Of a stretch of 58,567 nucleotides of DNA, positions 16,001 through 58,567 are shown one piece after another. A program made the translations under genes and the position numbers. The notes under the pieces were generated by a model. The model had not been told where the DNA came from. It did not search any database and saw nothing but the letters and a program-made list of their open reading frames with translations. Source of the DNA: a virus (Duplodnaviria; Caudoviricetes); IMG/VR virus record IMGVR_UViG_3300030331_003634, positions 1 through 58,567 of that record. One strand, written 5' to 3'. Position 1 is the first letter of the stretch. Every line of letters begins with the position of its first letter.

Positions 16001-19000
16001 AAACTACAGTCTTTACTTAAAGATATGGGTGTATTAGACTCAGTAGATTTTGGTTCTGTTACTGAGAACTTTAGATATAATAAGAACGAAGATGGAACTT
16101 TTGAAAAGGCTGGTATTGAAAGTATTAGTTTTTCACTTAATTATCCACTTGGATCTGAAAATATAAACTCTTTAATAAGAGATACGTTTGATAGTCCTTT
16201 CTTTGAAAAGATAAGCCCTAAAACTCAACCTATAAATACGTTTGAAGAAGTTGCAAGGGTTGCAGAGTTACTTGGTTTTCAAGGATTCATATATGACCAT
16301 GTTGGTGGTAAGACAGTTACAGCATGGCAACCAGTTGAAATTGTTGATGATAGATTCCAAGTTAACGATCAGGATCAGAGTGATGTTTATGTCTCTGGAC
16401 TTGGTGCTATAATGTGGGACTTAACAAAACCTATTATAGATGCAGATTACGAACTTGGAGAATGGGCCACAAGAATTAAAGATAAAGACAGACCTTACCC
16501 TATCAGAGCTACTCAGTTGTTTGGAATACCTAAAGGTATGCACTCTAACGCTGAGATAAAAGAGATGGTTATTCTATCTAGAGGTAAACTTGATGAGCAA
16601 ATGCTTATAGCTAACAAAAATCAAAAGAACCTTAAGAAAGTTGTAAACCAAGAGATAAAAAGAATAAAAGATACCCCTGAATATAAACAAGCTACAGCTC
16701 AAGAACAAGAGGCAATGCTATCTAATTTAACACCTGAAGGTCTAAACGACCTTGTAGGTGATATAAATAAAATAATGGAGTTACCTGAACAATCCAAGGT
16801 TAGACAAGCTTTACTTCAGGTTAGAGATCACATAGATACATTAAGTACATACCTATACGAGAATGGTTTAGTTAGTGGACCGATGAGGTATACCATAGAG
16901 GGTAATCTTGGGTTCTATTTAACCAGAGCTTATAAGAAATATGAAAGTAGCTCTTGGAGACAGACAGATCAAGAGGTTATAAGACGTGCTGAATTATTTA
17001 TAGCTGACAAACTTATGTCTGATAAAAACATGAGTAAAGAAGATGCTATGATTCGTGCAAGACAAATGGTTGATAATCTTATTAAAGATAAGATTAGTGT
17101 AACATCATTTAAAAGAAATACAGGTATTGGTGGTTCTATGACCAGAGTGAATGATATATTTAAAGAAAGAAATGAAGATCTTCCTAAAGAGATTAGAGAT
17201 TTACTTGGAGAGATAAACGAACCTTTTGAAAATTACATAAATACAATATCTAAACTATCTAGAACCGTAGTATCTAATCAGTTATATGAAGATCTTATAC
17301 AGATGGGTATGGGTAAGTTTGTAGCCGATCCAAATTTAGATGATGATAAAACATCTCAGATTCCTGGAATATCAAATAAATTAGAGGGAAAAAAATGGGG
17401 TCCATTAGAAGGTAAGTTTGTAGATAATGAAATGTTTGCTATGCTTAACGCTTATGAAAGTAATTCACTTTTTGACTCGTTGGCTTACAAAGCTTATATG
17501 ACTTTTATTTACGGAACCAAAAAGTTTGCCACAGTCCATAACCCAGGGACTCACGCTGTGAACTTAATAGGTAACACATACTTCTCTTTAGCTAATGGTC
17601 ACGTGAATCCTATTAAATTTTTTGACGCTGCTAGAACAGCTATTGGTGAGATAACAAACCTTAGTGGTAAAGAAAGAGAAGCCTTCTATCAAGAATTAAT
17701 ATCTCTTGGTGTTGTTAGCTCATCTGCTTCTTTAGCTGAGATAGTACAAATAGGTCAAGATATAGCTGGAGGTAAAGATGTAACAGCATTTTTAGATAGA
17801 ATGAATCAGGGTAGAGTTAGAAAGGTAGCAACAATACCTTTAAAAGGATTAAGAGGTATAGACAGAGGTTTAACTGCTGCTTATCAAGCTGAAGATGATG
17901 TGTTTAAGATATTTGGTTTTATAACTGAAAAGGCTAGATATATGGAAACAGGTATGAGTGAGGCTGAGGCTAAGGCTATGGCAGCAAGAAACACTAGAAA
18001 CCTTTACCCTAATTATGATATGGTCCCAAACTTAGTTAGAGTTCTTGGTCGTAACCCTTTTGTTGCTACCTTCGTTGCTTTTCAATCTGAAGCCATAAGA
18101 TGCACTAAGAACGCTTTACAATTAGCGTTTCAAGAGATGGGTAATCAAAACCCTAAGGTAAAATTAATGGGTGCTAAACGATTAGCATTCTCTTTATCTG
18201 CCTTAACTTTTATGGAAAACATAACATCTACAGCTATGTCAATGTTGTTTGGATCTGGATCAGATGATGAAGATGACGATATAGAAACTTACGGATTAAG
18301 ACATCTAACAGCTCCTTGGGATAAAGACTCTAAGTTAACGCCTATAGAGAAAGGATATATTACTCCTGATCACGAGGCTTATAATGGTGAGAACAATGGT
18401 AACGCTTATGTTCAATATATGAACGTTTCAAGATTGTCTGGTGGTGGACTTGTAAAAGATATGTTAAGAATTGCTTTTACAGATATGAATACTCCAGAAC
18501 AACAGAGTTCGTTAATGAGAATAGCTTTTACCCTTGGAAGAACATTTTTAAGTCAAGACATGGCTCTTGAAGTTGTTGAGGAGATAAGACAAAATAAAGG
18601 CAATAAAATTTATAACCCTACAGATAATTTCGCATCTAAAATTACAGACATAGCATTACATTTAGGTAAGAATTTAGGTCCTGGTGTTTTAAGAAGAGCT
18701 AAGATTATCAACGACTCTTTAAAAGATAATAGTGATAAGATAACTAATCACGAGCTACTAGCTATGATAGGACTTAGAATTACTACTATTGATGTTAATA
18801 AAGCGTTATTCTTTAGATCTAGGGATATTTATTCTAGTATGAGAAGTAGATCCGAAGGTAAAGGTTATGATCTTAGAGATTCAGGTGTTAAACTTACAAG
18901 GGCTATAGATCCTGGAAGTGAAAGCTTTGATTCTGATATGGCTATTTATTTTAACAGTCTTGTTGATGTTGTAGCTACAGCTAGAAGGTATGGTGTTCCA

Positions 19001-19132
19001 TTAAGTGAAGGAGATAATAACTGTAGAGAGATACTTAGAAAGTCTGGTGTACCATCAAATGTTATAGATAAAGTTATGTATAACGTGTATAATGGAAAAA
19101 ATAAAGATTCTTTATTAATAATGTATAAATAG
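10088..19132 (+). CDS. Giant polyvalent ejection protein (zincin HExxH, two SAM-lyase/DUF3293-like domains, ART-like domain, helical C-terminal region)
   Basis: 3,014 aa; PFHEITH...EEAFAE; YHYS...VFFYTD...GFQGFIY; glycine-rich hydrophobic helices near the N-terminus; RNLYPNY..PFVATFVAF near the C-terminus. Confidence 0.7.
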   Translation: MDEIKAQELYDFFNKEGYDLGDFNNFTSSLEDELKRKELYDFFNKEGYDVGSLENFNLKKKDPSQVSTSPSEVGESVSGGTESLDQSIQDRLNKGSQLDLSVFTTSSDQEAMKSNLEDERSRVYDAFGLNYSERQALLDRKSQIELEKEQARKDLTNAKMTRVGIKQKEGSDRYYIPTDKGLFSGNFLQNLDQAFTGYDYDDESEFRLGSKEEAEEYAIKNYKKSDSVIDTEIEDLERKAKPLSNLDESDVYKALEEQEEDAIKAEEYVNTNLMNSFIDQGFRGERLNQLVEQSGINTAYVKSKAFMVNGQETSPANLEQQVYDRDFITGLQNGSIKVSIDPAVAETEYGKFLKATLDVQSNAGSEVYDIVEEFLAGGASMGAGLLEVGEVLEAPFSDEYIKTGGFLANHVQDYAEQLRDMQRMYKYPGVMEAIRAGAWDDVPALFGKSIAGSSMQIVVMAMARRLGINPKIILGGLGVSAAGQKSLELKELRESGKIDINNFNLALNSIASGGFEVLYEIPTYQMIGAVQKTLRNAGKKAAKQVAKEVSENAFKDIFIKEPGSEMLTEISTMLVDHVTLTEKTNDAGILAKSFDDVVNRVANAGIAGFGMAAGIRTVGGAGAVGVSALNSIKGTDLTNKIVATYQVVNEDGSLGETKELTGAEYKEWSKDPNNIAGEINGDIKVNRYNSDIADAIDDIANTNSEDVVQANNDVNEAGSEANSLLNQIENDLQESTDKAPSDKIAKVKGLLNRMSEIIKETGAKGSQDLKGLTDKLNNIINKAGLSLNDNVLNQNTDNANIQGTETITEIQTESQARALEKGLKDGSNPSVVLSQDGVGISKDGKSISENNITLGKFKSKAAAKRALNNFNKQNSKAAVEERRHAETQKKNNKAFNKVDKKNLDEVSQDDLSNDYNIISASVGGLGKASNQQRNDKLEKVLKKKGLKYKKVQVVENGISKTAFMVEGMESSAALDLAVGFGQKTITSSKDGILHRDGTIESLDGNVYTGPNARNGARIVVMNVNGRKVSVRLGTNKASYSKDFNANNIEDINPFIENLPDNQKKILGHVLRFFSNIKGLNIRVVKTDSAMKKQLESEGYSPERINSIASNRAFYRAKDGTMVLNLQKMNLNTPFHEITHPLVDFIKRENPDLYSRIEQMVEKSDSNIPGSPFKKRWYKNGRRQSGSYMSWAESNYPGKSRAAQIEEAFAEMIGDAAANQFMKDNSKLKQIKDFIAEILEYFNINAEFLKEKNLSDLKLDDVKDIGQLRSNLGAALAKGKTVSVGGVDFNVSKPKNSKEVDSSIREQVDSQQHGDDLGVTEVTNMEGVETQEIRFQPGDYTPNFDLSKVKRGSIKEFNDQKAMLMCIDRSVSGTVESPSGVVKEFNGGMYYSYQDGTGVWAFASKGAASKVLNKAKESGGLVLLVAMSPQSIDGSVEMFDYVMDEIDNSIKKKRVKKKIVLDFINKKLNLKKVQDKLNKEGISKKKVKSINEFRELIMSLDGAFEVRKDLVSKMIKGKDLSSWGIPTREEMYSIVNQSDIKDLTGNPVVAAIRIDTESEFIDSRENSNIKDHPTYPYVVKGEPLMVFNEAVDASELWGDLNLADKYLINPETGQPYSEATTTTRRNAAIMMATPIVNIRAQADDSFTGGRNQYGRFNVTPSEDRITATPQDLFLENVSGLSSKGNWSIITGTVEADGSYDADVNVSNNARLYKELVEEFGAENIVVTDGVYLNKDQGPSYFISGITENRAMQIGKNFDQEGVLTRRGNIFTDGSGMNPASEKVYVGKEALAQDGNSTTPDGVTFSLDINWKSKVPLSTGIRSQVVSGEVNTITEDQLTLLKSTYSEIESKYPDIQVEDGMIKMYHYSDMELDVIDPRSAVMNSYSRKEYKTWGRSRVFFYTDPNIKEGIVGGHYKNTTVFPIDRLYPLTEDPLGLNDLASRAIEIKRNSGDKTQATIKLNATTIDSASMAISKLQSLLKDMGVLDSVDFGSVTENFRYNKNEDGTFEKAGIESISFSLNYPLGSENINSLIRDTFDSPFFEKISPKTQPINTFEEVARVAELLGFQGFIYDHVGGKTVTAWQPVEIVDDRFQVNDQDQSDVYVSGLGAIMWDLTKPIIDADYELGEWATRIKDKDRPYPIRATQLFGIPKGMHSNAEIKEMVILSRGKLDEQMLIANKNQKNLKKVVNQEIKRIKDTPEYKQATAQEQEAMLSNLTPEGLNDLVGDINKIMELPEQSKVRQALLQVRDHIDTLSTYLYENGLVSGPMRYTIEGNLGFYLTRAYKKYESSSWRQTDQEVIRRAELFIADKLMSDKNMSKEDAMIRARQMVDNLIKDKISVTSFKRNTGIGGSMTRVNDIFKERNEDLPKEIRDLLGEINEPFENYINTISKLSRTVVSNQLYEDLIQMGMGKFVADPNLDDDKTSQIPGISNKLEGKKWGPLEGKFVDNEMFAMLNAYESNSLFDSLAYKAYMTFIYGTKKFATVHNPGTHAVNLIGNTYFSLANGHVNPIKFFDAARTAIGEITNLSGKEREAFYQELISLGVVSSSASLAEIVQIGQDIAGGKDVTAFLDRMNQGRVRKVATIPLKGLRGIDRGLTAAYQAEDDVFKIFGFITEKARYMETGMSEAEAKAMAARNTRNLYPNYDMVPNLVRVLGRNPFVATFVAFQSEAIRCTKNALQLAFQEMGNQNPKVKLMGAKRLAFSLSALTFMENITSTAMSMLFGSGSDDEDDDIETYGLRHLTAPWDKDSKLTPIEKGYITPDHEAYNGENNGNAYVQYMNVSRLSGGGLVKDMLRIAFTDMNTPEQQSSLMRIAFTLGRTFLSQDMALEVVEEIRQNKGNKIYNPTDNFASKITDIALHLGKNLGPGVLRRAKIINDSLKDNSDKITNHELLAMIGLRITTIDVNKALFFRSRDIYSSMRSRSEGKGYDLRDSGVKLTRAIDPGSESFDSDMAIYFNSLVDVVATARRYGVPLSEGDNNCREILRKSGVPSNVIDKVMYNVYNGKNKDSLLIMYK
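10109..10234 (+). repeat. Intragenic direct repeat, 2 x ELYDFFNKEGYD, 90-nt period
   Basis: gagctatatgacttttttaataaagagggatacgat vs gagttgtatgacttctttaataaagagggatacgat. Confidence 0.9.
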
Positions 19133-19146
19133 TTAATTATAATTAT

Positions 19147-19154
19147 TAAATTTG
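19147..19154 (+). promoter_or_regulatory. Bacteroidota -7 promoter box upstream of candidate sRNA
   Basis: taaatttg 14 nt after the stop of the giant gene; no convincing + ORF before the terminator. Confidence 0.55.
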
Positions 19155-19159
19155 TAGTA

Positions 19160-19262
19160 CTTTTCTAACGTTCCATTCTGGAACAGTTTGCTTTTTTGTT
19201 CGCATTCATAGATTAGTTTTTTGGTTGTTTAAGAAGGAGGGGTAGTTCCCTCCTTTTTTTTT
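19160..19262 (+). ncRNA. Candidate ~100-nt small RNA complementary to early-gene translation leaders
   Basis: Bounded by a promoter box and an intrinsic terminator; 5' hairpin gttcca/tggaac; contains ttcatagattagttttttggttgtttaa, with a 16-nt exact match to 24065-24080. Confidence 0.5.
19234..19262 (+). terminator. Intrinsic terminator
   Basis: aaggaggg-gtagtt-ccctcctt followed by a T run. Confidence 0.85.
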
Positions 19263-19276
19263 ATTATATTAGCTCT

Positions 19277-19408
19277 ATGGAAATAGGTATACAATTAGTT
19301 AATGGAGTCGTGTTTGGATTTAGGTTATTCGCCCCAACAGAATCCATGCCATACAACGAACTCCAGCTATTTGCTGGAGTTATATGCTTTTATGTTATTT
19401 GGGATTAG
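19277..19408 (+). CDS. Small hydrophobic hypothetical protein (43 aa), not in ORF track
   Basis: MEIGIQLVNGVVFGFRLFAPTESMPYNELQLFAGVICFYVIWD; follows a tatattag promoter-like box; stop overlaps the convergent ORF by 4 nt. Confidence 0.55.
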   Translation: MEIGIQLVNGVVFGFRLFAPTESMPYNELQLFAGVICFYVIWD

Positions 19409-19551
19409 TCCTCGCAAGTAGAGCAGTCATCCTCTTCTCCACAGCATTCTTCATCTTCAGGGTCAACCACCCAAGATTCAAATAATTTTTCTTTAGATTC
19501 GTCTGATCTTTTTAACGCTTCTCGTAAAGCTTTGTCTCTGTCGTGTAACAT
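19405..19551 (-). CDS. Small acidic protein with C-terminal CC..CxxC (48 aa), not in ORF track
   Basis: MLHDRDKALREALKRSDESKEKLFESWVVDPEDEECCGEEDDCSTCED; AT-rich leader. Confidence 0.65.
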   Translation of the reverse strand: MLHDRDKALREALKRSDESKEKLFESWVVDPEDEECCGEEDDCSTCED

Positions 19552-19673
19552 TACTATATTATTTTAAAAAAGTATTAGGGGTGCAGACGACCAAATCTTT
19601 AACCCCCGAATACAAGAACAACCTAGCCCATATTGCTAAAGCTAGGATTTTAATTATGCAGCACTCACGCAGC

Positions 19674-20138
19674 TTACTCTCGTTTTTTAGAACCCCGACC
19701 TAAGATGGTATCGACTGCAATATCGACCTCCTTTTGATTTGATGGGACATATACGTCTAATTTTTGATCGGTATCATGAAGATACTTTAAAAACAGCTTG
19801 AATCGCATCTTAAACTCAGGGGTTCTTATTCCTTTTGTTTCTATGATAAAACCTTTTTCTAAATTAATAAAGTCTGGCGTATAAGATATATTTCTTATAT
19901 TACCAGGTTTTTTTTTAAAGGTAGTTTTACCTTTTGTTTTTCCCTTATCCATAAGGAGTCCTTCAAACTTGAATTTCTCTACAAGCTCAAAAGTTTTTCC
20001 TTCGTATTGATTTGGGATCTTTGCTTTTTTAAGGGCTCTATAGCAGTAAAGCTCTAGACCTGAGGCAAATGTGATTCCATCTGCGTTGTGTTTCTTAGCT
20101 TTAGTTATCTGCTTTCCTTTTCTTCTCTTGAATCGCAT
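19674..20138 (-). CDS. PD-(D/E)xK endonuclease, T7 endonuclease I/DUF1064-like (Holliday junction resolvase)
   Basis: FASGLE...YE...YTPDF...IIETKG motif order. Confidence 0.8.
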   Translation of the reverse strand: MRFKRRKGKQITKAKKHNADGITFASGLELYCYRALKKAKIPNQYEGKTFELVEKFKFEGLLMDKGKTKGKTTFKKKPGNIRNISYTPDFINLEKGFIIETKGIRTPEFKMRFKLFLKYLHDTDQKLDVYVPSNQKEVDIAVDTILGRGSKKRE

Positions 20139-23576: not shown

Positions 23577-24060
23577 CTGTAATATATTTAGGTTTAACGT
23601 ATCGGTTAGATTTCTTTTTATTTACATTAACTTCATCTTCCCATCCTCTAGAATTAAGCCAAGTTCTAGGAAACTTTCTATAAGTTCTATCAGGTGTTGA
23701 TTCAACATAAACCTTAACTCCTTTTATCGCCTCTCCCATTTCATTTAAGGTTAAATTCATAAACGATTTCCTTGTGTTGGGTTTGTCTTTTTTGTAATCA
23801 TACAAATTCCAAAACATCTCAAATGCTTTTTCTTTTCTTTGATTTTCAGTCTTAGGCTTAGACTTTCCAGTGAGCCTTAAATCTATAGTGTTAAAGTGAT
23901 TAACAATATTATTAAAAACACAACTAGATTCTATCTCGTTATTATATACAGATCGGTGTGTATTAGTTGAGGTGTGAAAGTTTATACAACTACCATCTAC
24001 CTCAATAAATTCTACCTTATCTATACTTATAATGTCTGTGTCTGATATTCTGTACTTCAT
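23566..24060 (-). CDS. Putative replication initiator/helicase-loader protein (start MKYRISD)
   Basis: FEMFWNLY..KKDK...FPRTWLNSRGWEDE, typical of phage replication-protein C-termini; directly upstream of dnaB; canonical leader at 24061-24080. Confidence 0.65.
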   Translation of the reverse strand: MKYRISDTDIISIDKVEFIEVDGSCINFHTSTNTHRSVYNNEIESSCVFNNIVNHFNTIDLRLTGKSKPKTENQRKEKAFEMFWNLYDYKKDKPNTRKSFMNLTLNEMGEAIKGVKVYVESTPDRTYRKFPRTWLNSRGWEDEVNVNKKKSNRYVKPKYITDER

Positions 24061-24084
24061 AGTTTTTTTTGGTTGTTTAAAAAT

Positions 24085-24181
24085 AAAAGAGGCTGACTTG
24101 CATACTGGCGGTAGACACATAAGATCTACCTCAATAGACGTACACTTATACAAGAAAAATCTTCATACGCCAGCCTCTTTT
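24085..24181 (-). promoter_or_regulatory. Structured intergenic RNA element / terminator-attenuator
   Basis: Minus strand: aaaagaggctggc pairs gtcagcctctttt; inner cttgtata/tatgcaag and ggtaga/tctacc stems; U-rich tail. Confidence 0.6.
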
Positions 24182-24184
24182 AAA

Positions 24185-24457
24185 TTAGAATGGTAAGTCG
24201 TCAGCTACTGCTTCTTTCTTAGCTTCAGGTTTCCAAGTGTCTACCTCAACGTAGTGTGTTTTACCATAATCATCAGCACCATTACGTTTTTTTACAACCT
24301 TTAAGGTTACAAATTTATCACCTGTTTTACCATCGAAGATATAATCTCCAGCTTCTTGTTTCAATTTAGTTAAATTCAAAGAGAACTGTACTAAATCTCC
24401 ATCAAATTTTTCTACTCCGTTTCCAACGTAGATTTTTTCTTTTGTTTTGTTACTCAT
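24185..24457 (-). CDS. Single-stranded DNA-binding protein-like
   Basis: Small beta-rich protein with acidic DDLPF C-terminus next to recombination genes. Confidence 0.7.
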   Translation of the reverse strand: MSNKTKEKIYVGNGVEKFDGDLVQFSLNLTKLKQEAGDYIFDGKTGDKFVTLKVVKKRNGADDYGKTHYVEVDTWKPEAKKEAVADDLPF

Positions 24458-25423: not shown

Positions 25424-25995
25424 TACACTAAAGTCTTAGATATTTTAAGGACTTTATCAAGATTATCTTGTTGATTCTTAGTCATAGTGTATCCAGCCAT
25501 CTTTTGCTCTACTACACTACCTTTACCATCCTCAATAGCCTTCATCATACTCTTGTATTGAGAGTCCGTTAGCTTAGGTTTAGATGTAATTTTCTTATTT
25601 GAACTCATACGAGTACCTTTAACAGCCATGTTGCCATCATCATCATCTCCTGTAACTACACCAACAAATGATGCAAGTGCGTACCTTCTAGCATAAGATA
25701 TAGCAGAGCCTACACCATGTGCATCTTCTTTTGCAGGTATATAACATGTTGATGCTAGGTACTCTCCACTAGAATGTGATAGGATTGTTGTTACACCACC
25801 TACATCAGTAGGCATTTGAATAATTGCTAACTCGTTATCTGCTAGTAGCTTACGAACAGAGTCCCATACTGATCCAAGATCGGCATAGCTTGACTTGAAG
25901 AAAGGGTTTTTTGAGTTTTCTTTTGCAGGTCTTAATTGAGACTGCACTTTCGATAAGGCAAGGGTTAGCTTGCCAATTGTTTCTGACTTTTCCAT
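25423..25995 (-). CDS. erf: ERF-family single-strand annealing recombinase
   Basis: KNPFFKSSYADL, HSSGEY, GSAISYARRYALASFVG..DDDDG. Confidence 0.9.
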   Translation of the reverse strand: MEKSETIGKLTLALSKVQSQLRPAKENSKNPFFKSSYADLGSVWDSVRKLLADNELAIIQMPTDVGGVTTILSHSSGEYLASTCYIPAKEDAHGVGSAISYARRYALASFVGVVTGDDDDGNMAVKGTRMSSNKKITSKPKLTDSQYKSMMKAIEDGKGSVVEQKMAGYTMTKNQQDNLDKVLKISKTLV

Positions 25996-26456: not shown

Positions 26457-26720
26457 TTATGATTTAAGGTGTTGTAAAATTGGGTTAGTAGGGTCAAGAC
26501 CTTTAATTACACTTACTAACTCATCAATGTCCATCTCCAAGTCCGTAACGATACTACGTTTGATTTCGTTTTCTAATTTAAGCTCTGCCTTGAGTTCTTT
26601 ATTTTGTTTTTCTAAAGCCTCTATTCTTATTCTTTGAAATTCTTCTACTTCCATAATTATTTTTTTTACTTTGTTTATATTTCCTTGATGCACCCATGGG
26701 TGATTATTAAAGTCCACCAT
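26457..26720 (-). CDS. Coiled-coil hypothetical protein (start may be internal MEVEEF)
   Basis: RIRIEALEKQNKELKAEL heptads. Confidence 0.55.
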   Translation of the reverse strand: MVDFNNHPWVHQGNINKVKKIIMEVEEFQRIRIEALEKQNKELKAELKLENEIKRSIVTDLEMDIDELVSVIKGLDPTNPILQHLKS

Positions 26721-26995
26721 TATTCTAGTTTTCTAATTATTTTGTTAAACTCTGTCTCTGTTTTTAAAGATATATCTTTTGATATTTTTTTGAAGTAATC
26801 AGACCTACCTACCTCTCTAGATTGCATATCTAAAAAGTCTACTATCAAATCTCTAATTTGTTTTAGAACTTGAGCATCCCTCATCTTTAGTTCAAACTCT
26901 AGCATAGGTAGGGAGTCAAGGGAGTTGAATTTAGATGAGTCTACTTCCCTTACCATCCATATCATCCTACTTATAAATTGTTGTCTAGTTTCCAC
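26720..26995 (-). CDS. Hypothetical protein
   Basis: 91-aa ORF with 1-nt overlaps to both neighbours. Confidence 0.6.
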   Translation of the reverse strand: METRQQFISRMIWMVREVDSSKFNSLDSLPMLEFELKMRDAQVLKQIRDLIVDFLDMQSREVGRSDYFKKISKDISLKTETEFNKIIRKLE

Positions 26996-27664: not shown

Positions 27665-27763
27665 TTAAATGTATTTTCTTATTAGTTTTATTTTTTCTGT
27701 ATCCGTTAGTTCTTCACTATCCAATATATTTATTAGATAACATTCAAACTCTTCGTTGCTCAT
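27665..27763 (-). CDS. Small hypothetical protein (32 aa), not in ORF track
   Basis: MSNEEFECYLINILDSEELTDTEKIKLIRKYI fills the intergenic gap. Confidence 0.5.
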   Translation of the reverse strand: MSNEEFECYLINILDSEELTDTEKIKLIRKYI

Positions 27764-27768
27764 AATTT

Positions 27769-28086
27769 CTAGTTGTTTTGGTTATAATCTTTAATAAATT
27801 TTATTACTGCTTTATATGTATCTGTTATAGACTTTGTATCTAAAGCATTCTCTATGTTCTCCATATTATCTTCATGTTCATATTCTAAATGACGAATTTT
27901 CTCTATCACTGGCATAAGCCAATCCCAAGACTTATCAAAAGATAATTCTTCTCCTTCATACCATGTACAATGATACTTTTCATCATAAACATGATAATCT
28001 GTAAAATGGTAGTTTACTAAGCCACTTTTAAATTCTTTCCTTTTTAACTCTAAAAATTCTGCTATAAGTTTATTCGTCTTCTCCAT
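27769..28086 (-). CDS. SWDWLMPV-family early protein, paralog 1
   Basis: NKLIAEF...KSWDWLMPVI...TYKAVIKFIKDYN. Confidence 0.7.
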   Translation of the reverse strand: MEKTNKLIAEFLELKRKEFKSGLVNYHFTDYHVYDEKYHCTWYEGEELSFDKSWDWLMPVIEKIRHLEYEHEDNMENIENALDTKSITDTYKAVIKFIKDYNQNN

Positions 28087-28288
28087 AACTATTTTCTTTC
28101 ATTGCTTGTTGTGTTTCTCTTACGATCTCCATGTGTTTCTCGTTATCGGGATTGAACTCCTCTTTCTTCTTATATAAGGCGTAACGATATTCTTCATCAG
28201 CCATTCTACCTCTTAGCTCTCTCTCTATGTTTATACCTTCCATAAAGCCTTGAGCCATCTGTATAAATAATTCTTTAGTTTTTCCCAT
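28070..28288 (-). CDS. Hypothetical protein
   Basis: 72-aa ORF beginning MGKTKELF between the two paralogs. Confidence 0.6.
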   Translation of the reverse strand: MGKTKELFIQMAQGFMEGINIERELRGRMADEEYRYALYKKKEEFNPDNEKHMEIVRETQQAMKENSYGEDE

Positions 28289-28568
28289 TGTTATAATCTT
28301 TAATAAATTCTACTACTGCATCATAAGTATCACCCATTTCAGCGACTTGAAGGTGGTGCATTATGTCTGACATCTGACCATCTTCAGCTACATCAAAGCA
28401 TTTATGTATGACAGGCATAAGCCAATCCCAAGATTTGTGGTATTGTAGTTTGTCTGCATACTCACTCCCATTTTTACTTGGAACAGGGCAGTAAATATCT
28501 CCTACTGATTTTATGTGAGTTTTTTCTGCACCCATAAATTCTGCTATAAGTTTGTTATTTTCTTCCAT
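28275..28568 (-). CDS. SWDWLMPV-family early protein, paralog 2
   Basis: NKLIAEF...KSWDWLMPVI...TYDAVVEFIKDYN. Confidence 0.7.
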   Translation of the reverse strand: MEENNKLIAEFMGAEKTHIKSVGDIYCPVPSKNGSEYADKLQYHKSWDWLMPVIHKCFDVAEDGQMSDIMHHLQVAEMGDTYDAVVEFIKDYNNGKN

Positions 28569-28572
28569 AATA

Positions 28573-28785
28573 TTAGTCTTTTGCGTTGTTAATTATTGTA
28601 TGCTCCATATCGTTTACGGAGTTTGTGTTTAAGTAGTCGTATAGGAAGTCTGTAATATCTACTGCACTCATTGTCTTTCTACAATGAAACATAATACTAT
28701 TGACTTCTAAATCTTCGTTGGTAACGTAGGCATCCACTACTACTTCGTAGTCTTTACCCTCTTGCAAAGTTGTTTGTGTATTCAT
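28573..28785 (-). CDS. Hypothetical acidic protein (likely start MNTQ)
   Basis: Canonical aaccaaaaactaaaaactatg leader precedes this ATG. Confidence 0.6.
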   Translation of the reverse strand: MNTQTTLQEGKDYEVVVDAYVTNEDLEVNSIMFHCRKTMSAVDITDFLYDYLNTNSVNDMEHTIINNAKD

Positions 28786-28902
28786 AGTTTTTAGTTTTTG
28801 GTTAGGCAATATTAGTAAATATATTTTACATGTGCAAATTTAATCTTTAATTTCATAATTGTTAATTTTTTTAAATTCCTTGACTTTTTAAAATATTTCT
28901 TG

Positions 28903-29103: not shown

Positions 29104-29358
29104 CTATACTTCGTAATAGTATGATTCAAATTGTTGTTTCAAGGCTCTCCCCTCTCTTGTGTTAAACCCATAGTTATGAGAGACTATCCCACTACTTATA
29201 GGTAGTGGTCTATTCTCTACCATAAAGAAGAAGATGTCCTCTGCTTTTATATCGTGTAGGTTTGCAAGTTCTGAACAAGCGTATTCCATATTGTCCATGT
29301 CGTGTACTACCTTACCATAGTTATCCATAAGGTATTTGTGCATTTGTTTTGCTTTCAT
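29104..29358 (-). CDS. Hypothetical early protein
   Basis: 84-aa ORF. Confidence 0.6.
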   Translation of the reverse strand: MKAKQMHKYLMDNYGKVVHDMDNMEYACSELANLHDIKAEDIFFFMVENRPLPISSGIVSHNYGFNTREGRALKQQFESYYYEV

Positions 29359-29362
29359 AGTA

Positions 29363-29584
29363 TTAGTCGTTTAATAGGTTGTCTGTATTGTTTAGTTTTT
29401 CCATTTGTTTGATAGCGTGGAGTAGTCGCCAATGTTCATCTTTTGTACCATTGTTATCAATATAGTTGATAATATCCTGCACAGATGATAGTGAATTGAT
29501 GTCTGCGTTCCAATTCGTGTTTAGGTTTAGAGGCATACGAATCATTTTAGATTGTAGGTAGCCTATTGTTGTGTAACTTCCCAT
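29363..29584 (-). CDS. Hypothetical early protein
   Basis: 73-aa ORF with aaactatg leader. Confidence 0.6.
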   Translation of the reverse strand: MGSYTTIGYLQSKMIRMPLNLNTNWNADINSLSSVQDIINYIDNNGTKDEHWRLLHAIKQMEKLNNTDNLLND

Positions 29585-29718: not shown

Positions 29719-29958
29719 CTATTTATTTTTGTTATTATTTTCTTCGTGTATTTCCATTAGTTTATCTACAATAAATTCTTCTATCTCATCGTATTTGCAA
29801 TCAGTAAAGTGGAATATTTCACTATTGTGGTCTAACTCAATTCCTAATAGTTCTGAGAACTTATCAAATATTTTATTATCGCTTAATATTTCTTCCACAA
29901 ATAATTGCATTCTAAATTTATTACCTCTTATTTCGTGTGGTTTAAGATTCTGTATCAT
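29719..29958 (-). CDS. Hypothetical early protein
   Basis: 79-aa acidic ORF, aaccaaaaactagaaactatg leader. Confidence 0.6.
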   Translation of the reverse strand: MIQNLKPHEIRGNKFRMQLFVEEILSDNKIFDKFSELLGIELDHNSEIFHFTDCKYDEIEEFIVDKLMEIHEENNNKNK

Positions 29959-29974
29959 AGTTTCTAGTTTTTGG

Positions 29975-30193
29975 TTATTTTATATTGTTTGATTCAAATA
30001 AGTTTATTATTGATTTATTTACTCTATTGTTGTATTCTGATATTAATGTTTTCGCAGTATTATAATCGCACCCCGAATAATCTTGTATCTCGTTATCATC
30101 CCCTACAAAAATTTCTATGTCGCAGTCGTATATATAATCCCAACCGATAAATTCTTGTCTGAACATTCTTGCTTTTTTGTGTAATAGTGTCAT
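29975..30193 (-). CDS. Hypothetical early protein
   Basis: 72-aa ORF, aaactatg leader. Confidence 0.6.
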   Translation of the reverse strand: MTLLHKKARMFRQEFIGWDYIYDCDIEIFVGDDNEIQDYSGCDYNTAKTLISEYNNRVNKSIINLFESNNIK

Positions 30194-30473: not shown

Positions 30474-30935
30474 ATAATTAGTTTTTACATACACAAATAA
30501 AATGTAAACTTTTTTTACATATTAATATTGAAGATTATATCTAAACTCAACAATAGCAAGGGATTGAGAGGGTAAAATTTTTTTTAGATTGATTGTATAT
30601 TTTCGGGGTTGGTGTGTTTGGTGGGGAGATTATGCCCCCTCTCTCTACTACTTTCTCTATAATAGTAACTGCGATACACTCCATTTAAGATGTGTTAGGA
30701 GCAATGTAAAGCAAAGTTTCGGCATCTTGTTATATATATCTAGTATAGTTAGATATAGTTAGTGTGATGAGCTGAAAATAGAAACGACATTTGTATTCTG
30801 TGTATTGTATTTTAGTTTGGGGACCCCGTTTGCGGTTTCGGGTTTCGGTGTGCGTGTGTCGACCCCTATATACATATATAACCCCCACCTTTTTTACTTC
30901 TCAAAAAATTTTGTACATTGCAAAAAATTTATATC
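30474..30935. other. Largest non-coding region; divergent strand switch; candidate physical genome end/packaging or origin region
   Basis: No credible ORF; G/T-skewed patches, ggggacccc palindrome, cggtttcgggtttcggt, tatatacatatata, aaaatttt. Confidence 0.55.
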
Positions 30936-31133
30936 ATGGCAAAAGCGATTAAAAAAAACAAACCTGTTAAGGGTGTTAGCACAGAGGGTCTTACATCTAG
31001 ACAAGCAAAAACACTTCAAAAACATTCAGTTCACCACACTAAAAAACATATAGCTGCAATGGTTAAGGCTATGAAGGCTGGTGCAACATTTGGGCAATCT
31101 CATAAAAAGGCTCAACGTAAAGTTGGAACTTAA
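30936..31133 (+). CDS. Small basic protein (MAKAIKK...)
   Basis: 65 aa, Lys/His-rich; follows tacattgc promoter-like box. Confidence 0.7.
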   Translation: MAKAIKKNKPVKGVSTEGLTSRQAKTLQKHSVHHTKKHIAAMVKAMKAGATFGQSHKKAQRKVGT

Positions 31134-32641: not shown

Positions 32642-34291
32642 TTAAGGATTAGAATCATATTCAGCACTTGTTGTACCCAAATATGTTCCCCAATCATACT
32701 CAACTACTGTGCTTACATACCAAAAAGTATTACCACTTAAGTCAGTATCATTCTGTATTGATATAGTCACTAAGTCTCCTGAGTCAAAATGTTTAGCGTT
32801 ACTAAATGCAAAGTGAAACACATGATAATCATCAGTAGACGTAACAGCTAATGTTTCTGTTTCTTCTTCTGTCCAATTTGATGTGCTAAATTGATTAATG
32901 TTTGGTGCTATAGTATTAACACCTATAGTCATATTACCAGAACCTGTAATACTTGATGTTCTAACAGTTACAGAAACAATTCTACCGTCACAAGGCATTA
33001 ACATTGCAGCTTCTTCTTGATATATTGTAGTTTGTTCATTAATATCTTTAAATGGTAAAAAATGTTTTGTTGTACCTAAATCATCAAGAAAACTTTGTGA
33101 GTATATTTCTCTTTGCTTTCCTGTTATTATACCTGTAACAGTTAAATTACCTGATTGGTCTAAATCTAAAGTTGTTGTGGCATTATTAGCCATTTTAACT
33201 TTAAAGTTACCCTCATCATTTCTCATTACAAGGTCATCCCCTGTACCAACCATACCAATGGCATTTGTTCCAGCAGTTGAGTTATCTGAAACCCTTACCA
33301 TACAATCAGCATCTGTACTAGAAGCGTTAATAGCTACATTACCTGTAGTTGAGTTTATAGTTAACGCATTGGCTGCTCCTGTTATATCTAAGTCTGCACA
33401 AGATAAAGTTCCACCTATAGATGTATTACCACTAGAATCAAAGGTTATACAGGTAGTACCATCATCGTCTTTTATATCGTTACCTGTAACAGTAAGATCT
33501 CCGTTTACAGTAAAGTTTCCTGCAGATGCAGTTGCTGTAGCAGCATTACCAGTTGTGCTTTGATTTAATGTAGGAACATTGTCAGCGTGAATATTTCCAT
33601 CTCCACTTACAGTTAAATCAACTGGTATATCGTTTACAACTAAATCTATTGTACCGTCACTATCCTGGTATGTAGCGGATATTCTTGTTTCTGTATTTCC
33701 AGTAAACATTGCACCAACAATATCCTGAACCTCTTCATTTGTAAGTTGAGTATTGGTATCAGCTGTCATGTCATCTACCACAAGATCAATAGTGCCATCA
33801 CTGTCTTCATAGGTTGCACTTATCCTAGTCTCAGTGTTAGATGTAAACATAGCACCTACTATGTCTTGAACTTCTTCAGTAGTAAGTTGTGTGTTGGTGT
33901 CTGTAGCTACAAGGTCTATTGTTCCGTCAGAATCTTGATAAGTAACTGTAATGTTGGTTTCAGTATTACTACTAAACATGGCTCCAACAATATCTTGAAC
34001 TTGTTCTGTAGTTAGCGTGGCTCCACTAGAGCTAAGTTCAACCTCTGAAACCTCGTTACTTTTAAAGTATAGCTTTCCGTCTGCAGACTTAATATATACT
34101 ACACCACCATCTCCATCTACTGGAGTTCCTGGCACTGAAGATGATTCTTTTATCTTTACAGAGTCAGCTTTAATATCTCCGTAAAAATCAAAAAGGCTAC
34201 GTTGTAGTAGCCCTTTCTTAAAAATCCTCATCACTCTTCGACCATAGTCGGTGACTACCTCACCTATACCATTTTTCTTTGGTGATTTCAT
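32642..34291 (-). CDS. Tail fibre/receptor-binding-like protein
   Basis: ADGKLYFK, three ~43-aa repeats, LNQSTTGNAATAT, GDLTVTGNDI trimeric-fibre motifs, C-terminal beta domain. Confidence 0.7.
   Translation of the reverse strand: MKSPKKNGIGEVVTDYGRRVMRIFKKGLLQRSLFDFYGDIKADSVKIKESSSVPGTPVDGDGGVVYIKSADGKLYFKSNEVSEVELSSSGATLTTEQVQDIVGAMFSSNTETNITVTYQDSDGTIDLVATDTNTQLTTEEVQDIVGAMFTSNTETRISATYEDSDGTIDLVVDDMTADTNTQLTNEEVQDIVGAMFTGNTETRISATYQDSDGTIDLVVNDIPVDLTVSGDGNIHADNVPTLNQSTTGNAATATASAGNFTVNGDLTVTGNDIKDDDGTTCITFDSSGNTSIGGTLSCADLDITGAANALTINSTTGNVAINASSTDADCMVRVSDNSTAGTNAIGMVGTGDDLVMRNDEGNFKVKMANNATTTLDLDQSGNLTVTGIITGKQREIYSQSFLDDLGTTKHFLPFKDINEQTTIYQEEAAMLMPCDGRIVSVTVRTSSITGSGNMTIGVNTIAPNINQFSTSNWTEEETETLAVTSTDDYHVFHFAFSNAKHFDSGDLVTISIQNDTDLSGNTFWYVSTVVEYDWGTYLGTTSAEYDSNP
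33635..34015 (-). repeat. 3 tandem repeats LT[TN]E[EQ]VQDIVGAMFxxNTETxIxxTYxDSDGTIDLV
   Basis: Visible in the translation; DNA differs mainly at third positions. Bounds approximate. Confidence 0.9.
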
Positions 34292-34297
34292 TTAGAT

Positions 34298-35329
34298 TTA
34301 CTTTTTCATTTTAGCACCGTACATTGCTTTTTTTTTCATCTTAGCACCATACATAGCTTTCTTCTTCATCTTAGCACCGTACATAGCTTTCTTCATAGAA
34401 GCACCATACATCATTTTGCCTTTTGCTCTTACCATTTTAGCCACAGCTTGCTCACGAGACATCCCTCCACCAGCTTTTGACATATAGTATTTTACTAATT
34501 GTGGTCCTGATGTTGCTTTTTCTGCAATTCCTTCTTTAGCTTGAACAGCTTCTCCTCTTCTTGAGGATTTTACTTTTGGAGTTGAAAGCAATGGATTTTT
34601 AGGTTTGCTATCTTTTTGAAGTTTCTTAGCCTTAGCATCCATTTCTGCTTTTTGCTTCTTAGTAATCTTACCACCATTCTTTAGCATTTTGTCGTCTTTC
34701 TTCATACTTTCCATCATCTCTTTACTTCCCATACGACCACCTATTTTCATGTAACCCATTTTATTTCGTACACTAGTTGGTAGCTTAGATAGACCTTTGG
34801 CATTAGAAGGAACTGGTTTTAGCTTACCACCTTTTTCCATCATCTTCATTTTCATTTTACCCATTGCTGCACCGCCTGGTGCTTTTTTTACTGCTTTCAT
34901 TTTTTTTGTTTTTACAGGTGCAATCATTATAGCTAGAGCACCACCATTTCTAGCGTTAATATCTTTTTGTTTACGTTTAATCATTTTTTTTGTAGTACCA
35001 TCAGCCATCATTCTTTCGTATACTTCTCCAAACCCAACACTTGCTCTAGACTTTTTATTAGCTATAGCTCTTTTAGTTGTAGCTTGATCTTTCTTCTGCT
35101 GCTCTCTAAATTTTTTCATTTCAGCTGATTTCTTAGCAGACTCCTCTGCAGAAGCTAATCCAGACATTCCAGGACTCATAGCTTTTTTAACTTTAGCAGC
35201 TTCTCTTCTAACTTTTAAGTTCGCCTCTCTTTTAGCTCTATTTTTAGCTCTTAACTCTTGTAAAGAAGTTTTTTTAGCTAACTCTTCTGCTTGTTTTCTT
35301 GCTCTTCTTTTTTTTAAAAGTTTTACCAT
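34298..35329 (-). CDS. Highly basic Lys/Met/Ala-rich low-complexity protein (likely start MVKLLKK)
   Basis: Recurrent xxGG/xxGA motifs; C-terminal KKAMYGAKMK repeats. Confidence 0.7.
   Translation of the reverse strand: MVKLLKKRRARKQAEELAKKTSLQELRAKNRAKREANLKVRREAAKVKKAMSPGMSGLASAEESAKKSAEMKKFREQQKKDQATTKRAIANKKSRASVGFGEVYERMMADGTTKKMIKRKQKDINARNGGALAIMIAPVKTKKMKAVKKAPGGAAMGKMKMKMMEKGGKLKPVPSNAKGLSKLPTSVRNKMGYMKIGGRMGSKEMMESMKKDDKMLKNGGKITKKQKAEMDAKAKKLQKDSKPKNPLLSTPKVKSSRRGEAVQAKEGIAEKATSGPQLVKYYMSKAGGGMSREQAVAKMVRAKGKMMYGASMKKAMYGAKMKKKAMYGAKMKKKAMYGAKMKK
34301..34412 (-). repeat. 30-bp tandem repeat (3 copies plus partial) encoding KKAMYGAKMK
   Basis: ttcatcttagcacc[ag]tacatagctttc units. 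Confidence 0.9.
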
Positions 35330-37089: not shown

Positions 37090-37337
37090 TGAAGGCTTTA
37101 AGAAAATCACAAAAAAGTTTAAAAGATTGGGGAGATCAGGATTGGGATTATGTCAGTAAAGAAGATGAAAAAAAGCCTGTAAGCCAAAGAGGTAGATACC
37201 TTCCTAAATCTGTTAGAGAATCTTTAAGTCCTAGTGAAAAAGCTGCTACAAATAGAGCTAAAAAAAGAGCTAGAAGAAAAGGTAAGCAATTTGCAAAATA
37301 CAGTAAAAAAGTAGCCCGAAAAGTAAGAAATGCGTAA
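37089..37337 (+). CDS. Small basic protein (MKALRK...), resembles the C-terminal part of DUF5872-containing proteins
   Basis: SQKSLKDW..QDW...RYLPK...LSPSEKAAT..KK..GKQF. Confidence 0.75.
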   Translation: MKALRKSQKSLKDWGDQDWDYVSKEDEKKPVSQRGRYLPKSVRESLSPSEKAATNRAKKRARRKGKQFAKYSKKVARKVRNA

Positions 37338-58400: not shown

Positions 58401-58567
58401 TTTAGAGGGTGTAGCTTCAGTAATTCCTGATGATGGTATAACGCAGGATGATGTAGATGCTGCTGTTGCTAATGCTGCTGAGGCTGTTGCTGCTGCTGAA
58501 GCTGCTGCTGCTGCTGCTGAGGAAGCAAAGGTGTTAGCTCAAGGTGAATTGGCTAATACACAAATTT
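55429..58567 (+). CDS. N-terminal 1,040 aa of the giant tail stabilisation protein (continues at position 1); not in ORF track
   Basis: MAQDKKVFTGGMDKDSDPRLIKQGDYRDALNIR..GSVENIEGN; frame apparently open to the window end and in frame with 1..7173. Confidence 0.85.
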   Translation, partial: MAQDKKVFTGGMDKDSDPRLIKQGDYRDALNIRSVSSSDSTAGSVENIEGNTLVPYNFITENNEYVNVESGIGVNGTGVSIDDVQPDLVNLSQTIVFSGTESINYFSNFTIGYESDESSDPVFISTSFTTWFGSAQLTNTSQTLYDKFGPGGPLSSFSVVDLITGLPININASVDFLPGDLFDGSNSFSITFTSSQPGASFNLIIKSTFSNTDYPQGEYDIGEDYSDLNNYYIGQNTIINGSTGFSQSDNDTNVDDDGTTFGPGPADGVGSTVYEFNVDGEQGTTTPGDPENNVNMYSYDQTAGDGLSTDDYIITEVLNLTESIDKFNSGGEFEFGPSQDSISQFLVDAISNDKFGEVIIEGSNGSTTELSSITTNFVKTTSLGGKSSNLGRNNPDAVPYSQLEFYFNSEEVSEGDGFSINQGTLTFSGEEVKAVNTYSLSANIIEGKNFKLDLTVSGLPSGNSFTVNVGNDTFGTISADGSHSIFINDPNNSSVIFLQFDKDFTSSDTLTLTNVRLFLENEQVDRLTVRLASPNFTRFKLAFASSETELRNDLVAGSPVTSLSSWYSGTGIELINKSAGTTDLSSVSDDYQELLLELQEAENTIRLLRAQINSITDTYNNQISILEQQLAVANSNLAQVEIELANAIHAEDTLRRENETLRQSQRQLQNVIATFIDQAIDPKPEILVNLYAGNIDTIKESLNLIAADLVNLTTTTIVNSELQDKVNDLTADNANLQAQLEELSNIIITENDTDISLIQAATELKNKNTQLDEELSTLQNNINIVLFGDADDLNNAGGLYSELGFPVSQSEFTLTSLATLISSTLSAQQSSYESQIDILNVDLSNAQSLATSAELSAAFAEGAASVDITSDNAILAAAAFADGVASVPVITQENFDTAIELANADVLFAQEAVVNTQQALDDAQAALDAGIEDFGDTNVGPMPGLRLAVDNAIANLAAAELQVNINQAFFNGVQSITADDGISQSDVEAAYLEGVASVIPDDGITQDDVDAAVANAAEAVAAAEAAAAAAEEAKVLAQGELANTQI
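58549..58567. repeat. Terminal direct repeat identical to 1-19
   Basis: ttggctaatacacaaattt. Confidence 0.95.

Follow-up and report, generated by a model that had tools for sequence, protein, structure and literature searches.

Results

A small RNA-like unit between the late and early blocks of a marine phage

The stretch of DNA analyzed here (the window) is the whole of virus record IMGVR_UViG_3300030331_003634 (Caudoviricetes; 58,567 nt, 34% G+C, an estimated ~93% complete). Our subject is a short unit at positions 19147 to 19262 on its plus strand, which we predict to be the gene of a small RNA (sRNA) directed against translation starts of the phage's own early genes. Two convergent gene blocks flank this unit. 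The late block, on the plus strand, encodes the terminase, the portal, and virion proteins, followed by giant proteins of >2,390 aa and 3,014 aa, and ends at position 19132. The early block runs on the minus strand from ~30.4 kb down to 19.4 kb and comprises small early genes and replication genes, including those for Erf, a PDDEXK nuclease, a replication-initiation protein, the DnaB helicase, and a DUF1064 protein. Deposited phages yielded only distant protein matches, for example in the Cellulophaga phages phi19:3, phi13:2, and phi18:3. A blastn search of positions 18900 to 19700 against deposited phages returned no match, and tblastn searches with the end of the giant protein and with DnaB returned distant matches (<60% identity), with no cultured close relative found among them. 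No tRNA or tmRNA gene was found in a search of the window. The phage is marine, with Bacteroidota-type hosts. The features of the unit and of the gene that follows it are listed here.

19147 to 19154, plus strand: TAAATTTG box, which fits TAnnTTTG, a sequence that we take to be the Bacteroidota −7 promoter consensus; predicted promoter
19159 to 19262, plus strand: predicted small RNA of ~104 nt, with a putative 5′ end and the T run as its 3′ end
19170 to 19184, plus strand: hairpin 1 (GTTCC-ATTC-TGGAAC), within the 5′ domain
19201 to 19233, plus strand: anti-start-region segment, with CAU at 19207 to 19209 and an unpaired, U-rich GGUU linker at ~19217 to 19233
19231 to 19262, plus strand: intrinsic terminator, common to the late operon, with a 12-bp stem, a UAGU loop, and nine U residues
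19277 to 19408, plus strand: conserved 43-aa gene (MEIGIQL...), which begins 15 nt past the T run and has no box of its own

The stop codon of the 3,014-aa late gene occupies 19130 to 19132, the box begins at 19147, and the terminator consists of a stem at 19231 to 19258 and a run of nine T to 19262, with no other terminator intervening. The unit is thereby placed in the 3′ untranslated region (3′ UTR) of the upstream mRNA, between its stop codon and a shared terminator, in the window and likewise in the related lineages L001 to L004. Box and terminator are separated by ~75 nt without a conserved open reading frame (ORF) on either strand. The open U-rich stretch reads UUUUUUGGUUGUUUAAG and is immediately preceded by CAUAG. 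The 104-nt RNA has a predicted folding energy of −28.1 kcal/mol (z = −3.8). A covariance model, R1, built from related sequences as described below, scores the window copy at 73.9 bits and finds it to be the single copy in the record.

A first-pass annotation had drawn attention to this unit as a promoter box, a noncoding stretch, and a strong plus-strand terminator, and all three are present as it described them. It had also reported that 16 nt of the unit (19217 to 19232) recur at the start of the replication-initiator gene (24065 to 24080), and had quoted similar strings at gene starts near 25993, 28780, and 29956. The 16-nt identity is exact, with ~2e-4 further same-strand copies expected from base frequencies, and the other strings are present; as an observation on the sequence, that annotation is confirmed.

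The box is the predicted promoter of a separate transcription unit. Positions T1, A2, T5, and T6 are invariant in 24 aligned variants, and a TAnnTTT(G/A) box is retained in all types of the element. Across the window, 11 of the 86 TAnnTTTG boxes lie in the 4% of the DNA that is intergenic (P = 7e-4), and 8 of these 11 sit 16 to 50 nt upstream of a co-oriented ATG, from which position the phage evidently uses such boxes as promoters. The case for the predicted promoter is one of conservation and position, not of occurrence.

The unit is conserved and structured in related phages

To locate relatives, we used the last 499 aa of the giant protein, which identified four loci (77, 37, 37, and 34% identity). 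All four carry the unit directly after that gene. The same promoter, anti-leader, and terminator unit that the first-pass annotation had suggested looking for in related phages is thus found there, even beside giant proteins that are 34 to 37% identical. The layout that is kept consists of the box, a 5′ stem-loop, the unpaired U-rich GGUU stretch, and the terminator. A pattern scan of viral contigs for the GGTT stretch and terminator returned 41 stretches; their terminators are invariant by construction, because the pattern fixes that sequence. The same scan of 185,579 prokaryote species genomes returned 0 stretches and therefore no host or prophage copy.

Twenty-four variants were aligned (A1), and R1 was built from this alignment. 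Since the 2-kb flanks of the pattern matches fell short of the motif-bearing early genes, we fetched loci anchored on the helicase (69 from viral contigs and 70 from metagenomes) and ran R1 over these. The model recovered further variants with other terminator stems (GGGGGA/TCCCCC, GGGAGGA/TCCTCCC, and GGGGAAG-type) and other 5′ stems. Rfam 15 gave 0 matches at the gathering score over the whole window; the best matches by E value over 19100 to 19450 scored 12.8 to 19.6 bits against thresholds of 42 to 100 and were driven by the terminator. Nucleotide identity was 0.68 to 0.78 in the element and 0.64 to 0.66 in neighboring coding DNA, a weak contrast that we did not use as evidence.

The conserved structure is accompanied by compensatory change. 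In A1, 13 pairs are paired in 100% of sequences, and 5 of them have changed on both sides, which 0 of 500 shuffles reached; slid controls on the same alignment were 54 to 90% paired. All five pairs of hairpin 1 are paired in the 10 sequences that have it, with 2 pairs changed on both sides, and eight terminator pairs are 100% paired in 24 sequences, 3 of them with both-side changes, other lineages having different stems. The stem of hairpin 1 occurs as GTTCC/GGAAC, GCTCC/GGAGC, GCACC/GGTGC, and GTCCC/GGGAC, and as GACTCT/AGAGTC and TTGTT/AACAA in L141 and L142, and all of these stems enclose a conserved (A/G)TTC loop (GTTC in L141 and L142). Further versions of the stem occur in L090 and L084. 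The loop, (A/G)UUC(U) in the RNA, is constant while the stem changes wholly between lineages, which suggests that it may be a recognition loop for a protein or another RNA.

Among 12 folded variants, the 5′ stem-loop and the terminator were present in all 12, and the GGUU stretch was predicted to be unpaired in 11. Shorter lineages (60 to 70 nt) do without hairpin 1, and the sequence that follows CAUA pairs instead with their 5′ end (ACUUCAAAAC). Of seven short variants examined, this fold places CAU in a loop in five (L040, L082, L098, L065, and L030), the loop being UUCAU in four and CAU alone in L030; L010 is without CAU, and L005 has it within an internal loop.

Several features orient the unit on the plus strand. 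The T run is found on this strand only, G-U pairs are present (for example, GU at the loop-closing pair in 24 of 24 sequences), and all 33 variants fold better as the plus strand than as its complement (30 of 33 when the 5′ domain is taken alone). This folding advantage is partly compositional because the plus strand is rich in G and U.

Two other interpretations of the sequence were tried and set aside. The first-pass annotation had itself named a minus-strand micro-ORF, which in the window would start at ATG 19209 and encode 14 aa, as a finding that would speak against an sRNA. We rejected it, as the peptides are not conserved: 7 of 33 variants lack the minus-strand ATG, the 26 that have it encode 15 distinct and unrelated peptides of 2 to 32 aa that differ widely across lineages, and frameshifts occur within the window's own lineage. 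The likeness of the GGAGG terminator arm to a Shine-Dalgarno (SD) element and that of the 3′ end to the 16S tail were likewise dropped, since on either strand any G-rich hairpin has this appearance. Taken together, these comparisons indicate that the unit is a conserved, structured, and strand-asymmetric RNA gene in dozens of related phages.

The open segment is complementary to early start regions

To quantify the potential for pairing, duplex energies were calculated between the stretch at 19193 to 19233 and start regions from −30 to +9. Mean energies were −14.0 kcal/mol for early genes (n = 31) and −10.6 kcal/mol for plus-strand genes (n = 33; Mann-Whitney P = 0.005). At or below −16 kcal/mol there were 8 of 31 early start regions, compared with 1.3 ± 1.4 in 200 shuffles of the seed, 1 of which reached 8. 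At or below −19 kcal/mol there were 7 of 31 early starts versus 7 of 668 non-start windows from the same transcripts (Fisher P = 4.6e-7) and versus 1 of 27 late starts (Fisher P = 0.041). Pairing with early starts is thus better than for shuffled seeds, a kind of control that the first-pass annotation had asked for, and better than for background windows. The seven strong duplexes use 27 to 35 nt of the sRNA (27 to 33 in six of them) and span their targets from −27/−20 to +5/+9 around the AUG. The predicted targets are as follows.

24052 to 24090, minus strand: replication-initiator start (ATG 24060), predicted main target; duplex −24.9 kcal/mol
29350 to 29388, minus strand: start of an 84-aa early gene (ATG 29358), predicted target; duplex −25.7 kcal/mol
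28560 to 28598, minus strand: start of a 97-aa early gene (ATG 28568), predicted target; duplex −23.7 kcal/mol
29950 to 29988, minus strand: start of a 79-aa early gene (ATG 29958), predicted target; duplex −21.4 kcal/mol; repeat families D1 and D10
28777 to 28815, minus strand: start of a 70-aa early gene (ATG 28785), predicted target; duplex −20.3 kcal/mol; repeat families D8 and D10
26712 to 26750, minus strand: start of an 87-aa early gene (ATG 26720), predicted target; duplex −20.0 kcal/mol
27755 to 27793, minus strand: start of a 32-aa early ORF (ATG 27763), predicted target; duplex −19.1 kcal/mol; repeat family D1

The protein that begins at ATG 24060 matches phrog_270, replication initiation protein (6e-12). 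The repeat families D1, D8, and D10 represent one leader cassette found at several early starts. This cassette, AAC..AACCAAAA..ACUAUG, immediately precedes the replication-initiator gene as well as some six further early genes on the minus strand, and its end, AACUAUG, places an A at −3. Leaders that end in ACTATG number 8 among the 31 early genes and 0 among the 27 late genes. On the minus strand, AACCAAAA occurs nine times. Six of these copies have an ATG no more than 20 nt downstream, namely those at five early gene starts and in the element itself; on the plus strand, the same holds for one of eight occurrences. Ungapped counts of the motif were not above those in shuffles (5 versus 3.3 and 1 versus 1.4); these counts, like bare counts of TAnnTTTG, are uninformative because the copies differ by indels.

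The segment co-varies with the replication-initiator leader

If the segment acts by pairing, its sequence would be expected to follow that of its targets, and co-varying leaders in related phages were among the checks proposed by the first-pass annotation. In 8 of 10 lineages, the cognate seed outperformed 100 shuffles on the early starts of its own phage (0 to 1 shuffles reached its score). When seeds were compared with the early starts of their own lineage after row and column means had been removed, 7 of 8 lineages were favorable (permutation P = 0.0066). For the replication initiator, we aligned locally the 32 nt before the terminator with the region around the initiator start in 13 lineages. 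The cognate residual was favorable in 11 of the 13 (permutation P = 0.00016): across these lineages, the seed tracks the replication-initiator leader. Features common to the element and the initiator start of the same phage include TAATGGTT (L082), TTATTGGTT (L065), GGTTTTTGGTT.GG (L086), and GGTTTTGGTTAA (L131).

The two copies, at the element and at the initiator start, have the same orientation on the DNA and lie 4.8 kb apart. In many relatives, their resemblance extends into a GGAGGGG hairpin beside the initiator leader. It terminates the preceding gene on the minus strand, and R1 scores these sites at 23 to 34 bits. The extended resemblance points to an origin of the RNA gene as a second copy of the region preceding the initiator gene. 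Its source was probably the block of terminator, leader, and ATG before that gene, now read in the opposite sense.

The corresponding site in the window differs in appearance. At 24081 to 24185, upstream of the initiator leader, a long stem (AAAAGAGGCTG ... CAGCCTCTTTT) encloses an insert of ~80 nt, and relatives have at this site a compact GGGAGGGG hairpin and a T run, the minus-strand terminator after the preceding gene. The insert holds a copy of a 25-nt stretch from within the initiator gene (repeat D16: 23983 to 24007 and 24112 to 24136).

A conserved 43-aa gene follows the terminator

The gene beyond the terminator had not been noticed in the first-pass annotation. Its 43-aa product (MEIGIQL..PYNE.Q.F.G..C.Y..WD) has 32 distinct variants with conserved columns in relatives and belongs to no Pfam or PHROG family. 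The gene starts 10 to 25 nt after the T run (15 nt in the window) and is the only gene, a small one, downstream of the terminator. Transcription must reach it by read-through, either from the 19147 box or out of the late operon, since it lacks its own box. The arrangement suggests a bifunctional locus made up of the RNA and the 43-aa gene. On the opposite strand, a 48-aa acidic ORF (19405 to 19551, minus strand) ends the early operon; a related frame is present in L001 and L002, and the ORF is missing in L004 along with the 43-aa gene.

Other features of the record

The C-terminal 499 aa of the 3,014-aa virion protein (17633 to 19129, plus strand) have their best deposited-phage match, at 27.8% identity, in a gene of Pseudoalteromonas phage vB_Pun_Y3 annotated as ADP-ribosyltransferase, and their PHROG match reads only "virion structural protein." In the early block, direct repeats D2, D3, D4, and D6 at 27760 to 28600, with a spacing of ~482 to 509 nt, indicate that a small pair of early genes was duplicated in tandem (27769 to 28086 and 28070 to 28288 versus 28275 to 28568). 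Short tandem repeats with periods of 10 and 19 occupy 30729 to 30944, where the early minus-strand block gives way to the plus-strand genes that start at 30936; this intervening gap could be a regulatory or origin region. A 30-nt tandem repeat (3.3 copies, 85% match) lies at 34293 to 34411, at the junction of the minus-strand genes 32642 to 34291 and 34298 to 35329. Near the end of the record, within the last open reading frame, there is a (TGC)n array of ~21 copies (58458 to 58519).

Discussion

A model for feedback on early translation

We propose that positions 19147 to 19262 are the gene of a trans-acting sRNA that damps translation of the replication initiator and of some early genes by covering their start regions. 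We assign this reading a probability of roughly 0.55. The RNA would have two sources, used alone or together: a host-type TAnnTTTG promoter belonging to the unit itself, and the late mRNA, whose tail it would form. A single terminator would end both transcripts. Its open U-rich stretch would begin pairing with the AACCAAAA leader, and the duplex would then zip across the AUG. Bacteroidota are described as lacking SD pairing and as tuning initiation by the openness of an A-rich leader (PMC6847099). Given this dependence of the ribosomes on open A-rich leaders, such a duplex should block initiation. The predicted duplex of ~30 bp, reaching from about −22 to +5, would prevent 30S binding to the initiator mRNA and to some six further early mRNAs, and it could also attract cleavage by RNase III. 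As the RNA would accumulate with late transcription and with genome copy number, translation of the initiator and the early set would be turned down.

A number of observations weigh against this model. Strong complementarity is limited to 7 of the 31 early start regions, which were themselves derived from crude ORF calls (first ATG, ≥40 aa). The claim of the first-pass annotation that the RNA is antisense to the leaders and AUGs of early and replication genes therefore holds insofar as complementarity exceeds the controls, but not for most of the early set, and the erf start, one of its examples, pairs weakly (−14.4 kcal/mol). Among the 27 late starts, which in that annotation would escape, the one at 37337 reaches −19.4 kcal/mol. 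The CAU that would oppose the AUG is missing in several lineages, and the predicted fold of L005 ties up the GGUU stretch in internal pairs. Seeds of L076 and L115 show no enrichment over shuffles, and the raw cognate initiator score is the row maximum in just 3 of 13 lineages. Since the lineages are related, the cross-lineage tests are not fully independent. TAnnTTTG boxes are not enriched by themselves in the window (86 versus 79 ± 9 expected). The sequencing runs listed as holding the stretch are all marine metagenomes, and none is recorded as RNA. Finally, gene conversion or a DNA-binding site common to both copies would likewise make two stretches of DNA alike, even in a lineage-specific way, and sequence alone would not separate gene conversion from selection for pairing. 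Overall, the interpretation offered by the first-pass annotation is partly supported, its core having come through each computational test applied. Its suggestion of a lytic/dormant switch is unsupported: no integrase or repressor family turned up among the 50 window protein queries scanned.

The 43-aa gene raises a different reading, in which the unit is the promoter and 5′ leader of that gene, its terminator is a regulated attenuator in the manner of lambda pR′-6S-tR′ or of leader attenuators, and the short RNA is a by-product without action in trans. In the lambda unit, the genes beyond the terminator need a phage antiterminator (Q with a qut site). The lambda-like order of a predicted promoter, a predicted short RNA, a terminator, and a gene is present. 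The element occurs in 40 of 40 distinct regions upstream of the 43-aa gene, always at the short distance given above, an association that fits a leader or attenuator at least as naturally as an sRNA gene. The 43-aa gene is real, to judge by its 32 conserved variants, and lacks the TAnnTTTG box that is found 16 to 50 nt upstream of other genes. However, L004, alone among the lineages, has the element without the gene, 12 folds revealed no alternative anti-terminator pairing, and neither an antiterminator gene nor a Q-like protein was recognized among the 50 protein queries. Attenuation also leaves the early-start complementarity and the co-variation with the initiator leader unexplained. We consider it unlikely as an account of the unit; the attenuator and trans-sRNA roles are not mutually exclusive. 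A slightly more doubtful proposal is that the sRNA is real but has its main targets elsewhere, either in host mRNAs with A-rich leaders, in the service of shutoff, or as a sponge of a U-rich-binding host factor. The architecture is indeed that of a seed-bearing sRNA, and U/G-rich seeds would match A-rich Bacteroidota leaders in general, but this would not account for lineage-specific co-variation with the phage's own initiator leader, and the duplexes of ~30 nt with phage starts exceed typical seed matches.

The remaining alternatives dispense with RNA pairing. The shared motif could function as double-stranded DNA, for instance as an operator or as the site to which the replication initiator binds, with copies at the element, at the initiator's own start, and at other early starts; RNA pairing would then be irrelevant. 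Initiators often bind near their own gene, the two copies agree in sequence and in orientation on the DNA, and a co-evolving DNA-binding protein would also yield lineage-specific similarity. Against this, the motif stands in a fixed register to the ATG and includes it, and a DNA site would leave the covarying stems, the plus-strand T run, and the strand asymmetry unexplained. There is also no tandem iteron-like array at the element or at the initiator start, and the iteron idea was rejected on this ground. We regard a DNA site as distinctly improbable. Least credible, and already disfavored, is a functionless, decaying relic of a minus-strand gene start beside an ordinary late-operon terminator. 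The segment does copy an early leader well, ATG included, and yields the 14-aa ORF, and in relatives the leader-plus-GGAGGGG hairpin also lies upstream of the initiator gene, where R1 detects it. A relic would not, however, keep its layout across lineages whose neighboring proteins are 34 to 37% identical, nor would it show compensatory stem changes; the micro-ORF peptides are unconserved, 7 of 33 variants are without the ATG, and downstream on the minus strand there is only the antisense of the giant gene.

The model of an sRNA acting on start regions can be extended to a new family of one-to-many silencer RNAs in hosts without SD recognition. These RNAs would have been born by duplication of a target, would have been kept complementary to it as both evolve, and, from their place at the tail of the late operon, would let late transcription itself feed back on early translation; read-through of the terminator would in addition yield the 43-aa protein and make the locus bifunctional. 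We put forward this fuller version tentatively, at somewhat less than even odds.

Relation to known regulatory RNAs

By analogy, the predicted RNA would be closest in logic to the c4 RNA of phages P1 and P7 and the CI RNA of P4, to plasmid antisense RNAs against rep leaders, and to 3′-UTR sRNAs, and the defining layout of the first two groups appears to be absent here. The c4 antisense RNA and CI RNA are short phage RNAs that act in trans on repeated sites before early or anti-repressor genes, where their pairing blocks ribosome binding or causes termination. They serve temperate phages as immunity factors, and each is released by processing from the leader of its own target operon. The RNA described here is likewise a short phage RNA with predicted trans action on repeated sites before the phage's own early genes. 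Unlike c4 and CI, it comes last in the late operon, on the 3′ side, where it faces the convergent early operon, and has its own box and terminator; its predicted targets are SD-less, A-rich leaders plus the AUG, and no lysogeny genes were seen among the 50 queries.

The plasmid RNAs CopA (R1, with its target CopT) and RNAI (ColIb-P9) are cis-encoded antisense RNAs that overlap the rep mRNA leader on the opposite strand. As with these, a small structured RNA would be complementary to the translation start of a replication initiator, and the UUCAU loop of the short variants resembles the YUNR-type recognition loops of plasmid copy-control RNAs. The gene, in contrast, does not overlap its target but is a diverged copy 4.8 kb away (19147 to 19262 versus 24060), the 16-nt exact match is part of a gapped duplex with 33 nt of the sRNA, and several other genes are matched too.

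Enterobacterial 3′-UTR sRNAs arise either from an internal promoter (DapZ and MicL type) or by processing (CpxQ type). The predicted RNA shares with them its position between a stop codon and a shared terminator, with an internal promoter or the parent mRNA as possible source. It differs in being a phage RNA in a Bacteroidota-type system, for which we know of no Hfq, and in having the phage's own genes as predicted targets. GcvB of enterobacteria pairs through a G/U-rich single-stranded region with a C/A-rich element before many start codons. One open G/U-rich region set against a shared element upstream of many starts is also predicted here, but there is no relation in sequence or structure (Rfam was negative), and the duplexes would use 27 to 35 nt, far beyond a short seed.

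To our knowledge, no phage-encoded regulatory RNA has been described for Bacteroidota phages, and a full-text literature search, judged from its listings, found no description of such an RNA in this group. The apparent birth of an RNA from a duplicated region of its target is of evolutionary interest. If the model is true, the unit would be a direct, testable example of RNA-based control of SD-less leaders, through masking of a shared A-rich leader and its AUG. It would also provide a simple mechanism for early-to-late timing and for control of replication in an abundant group of marine phages, represented here by 69 viral-contig and 70 metagenome loci that bear a related helicase.

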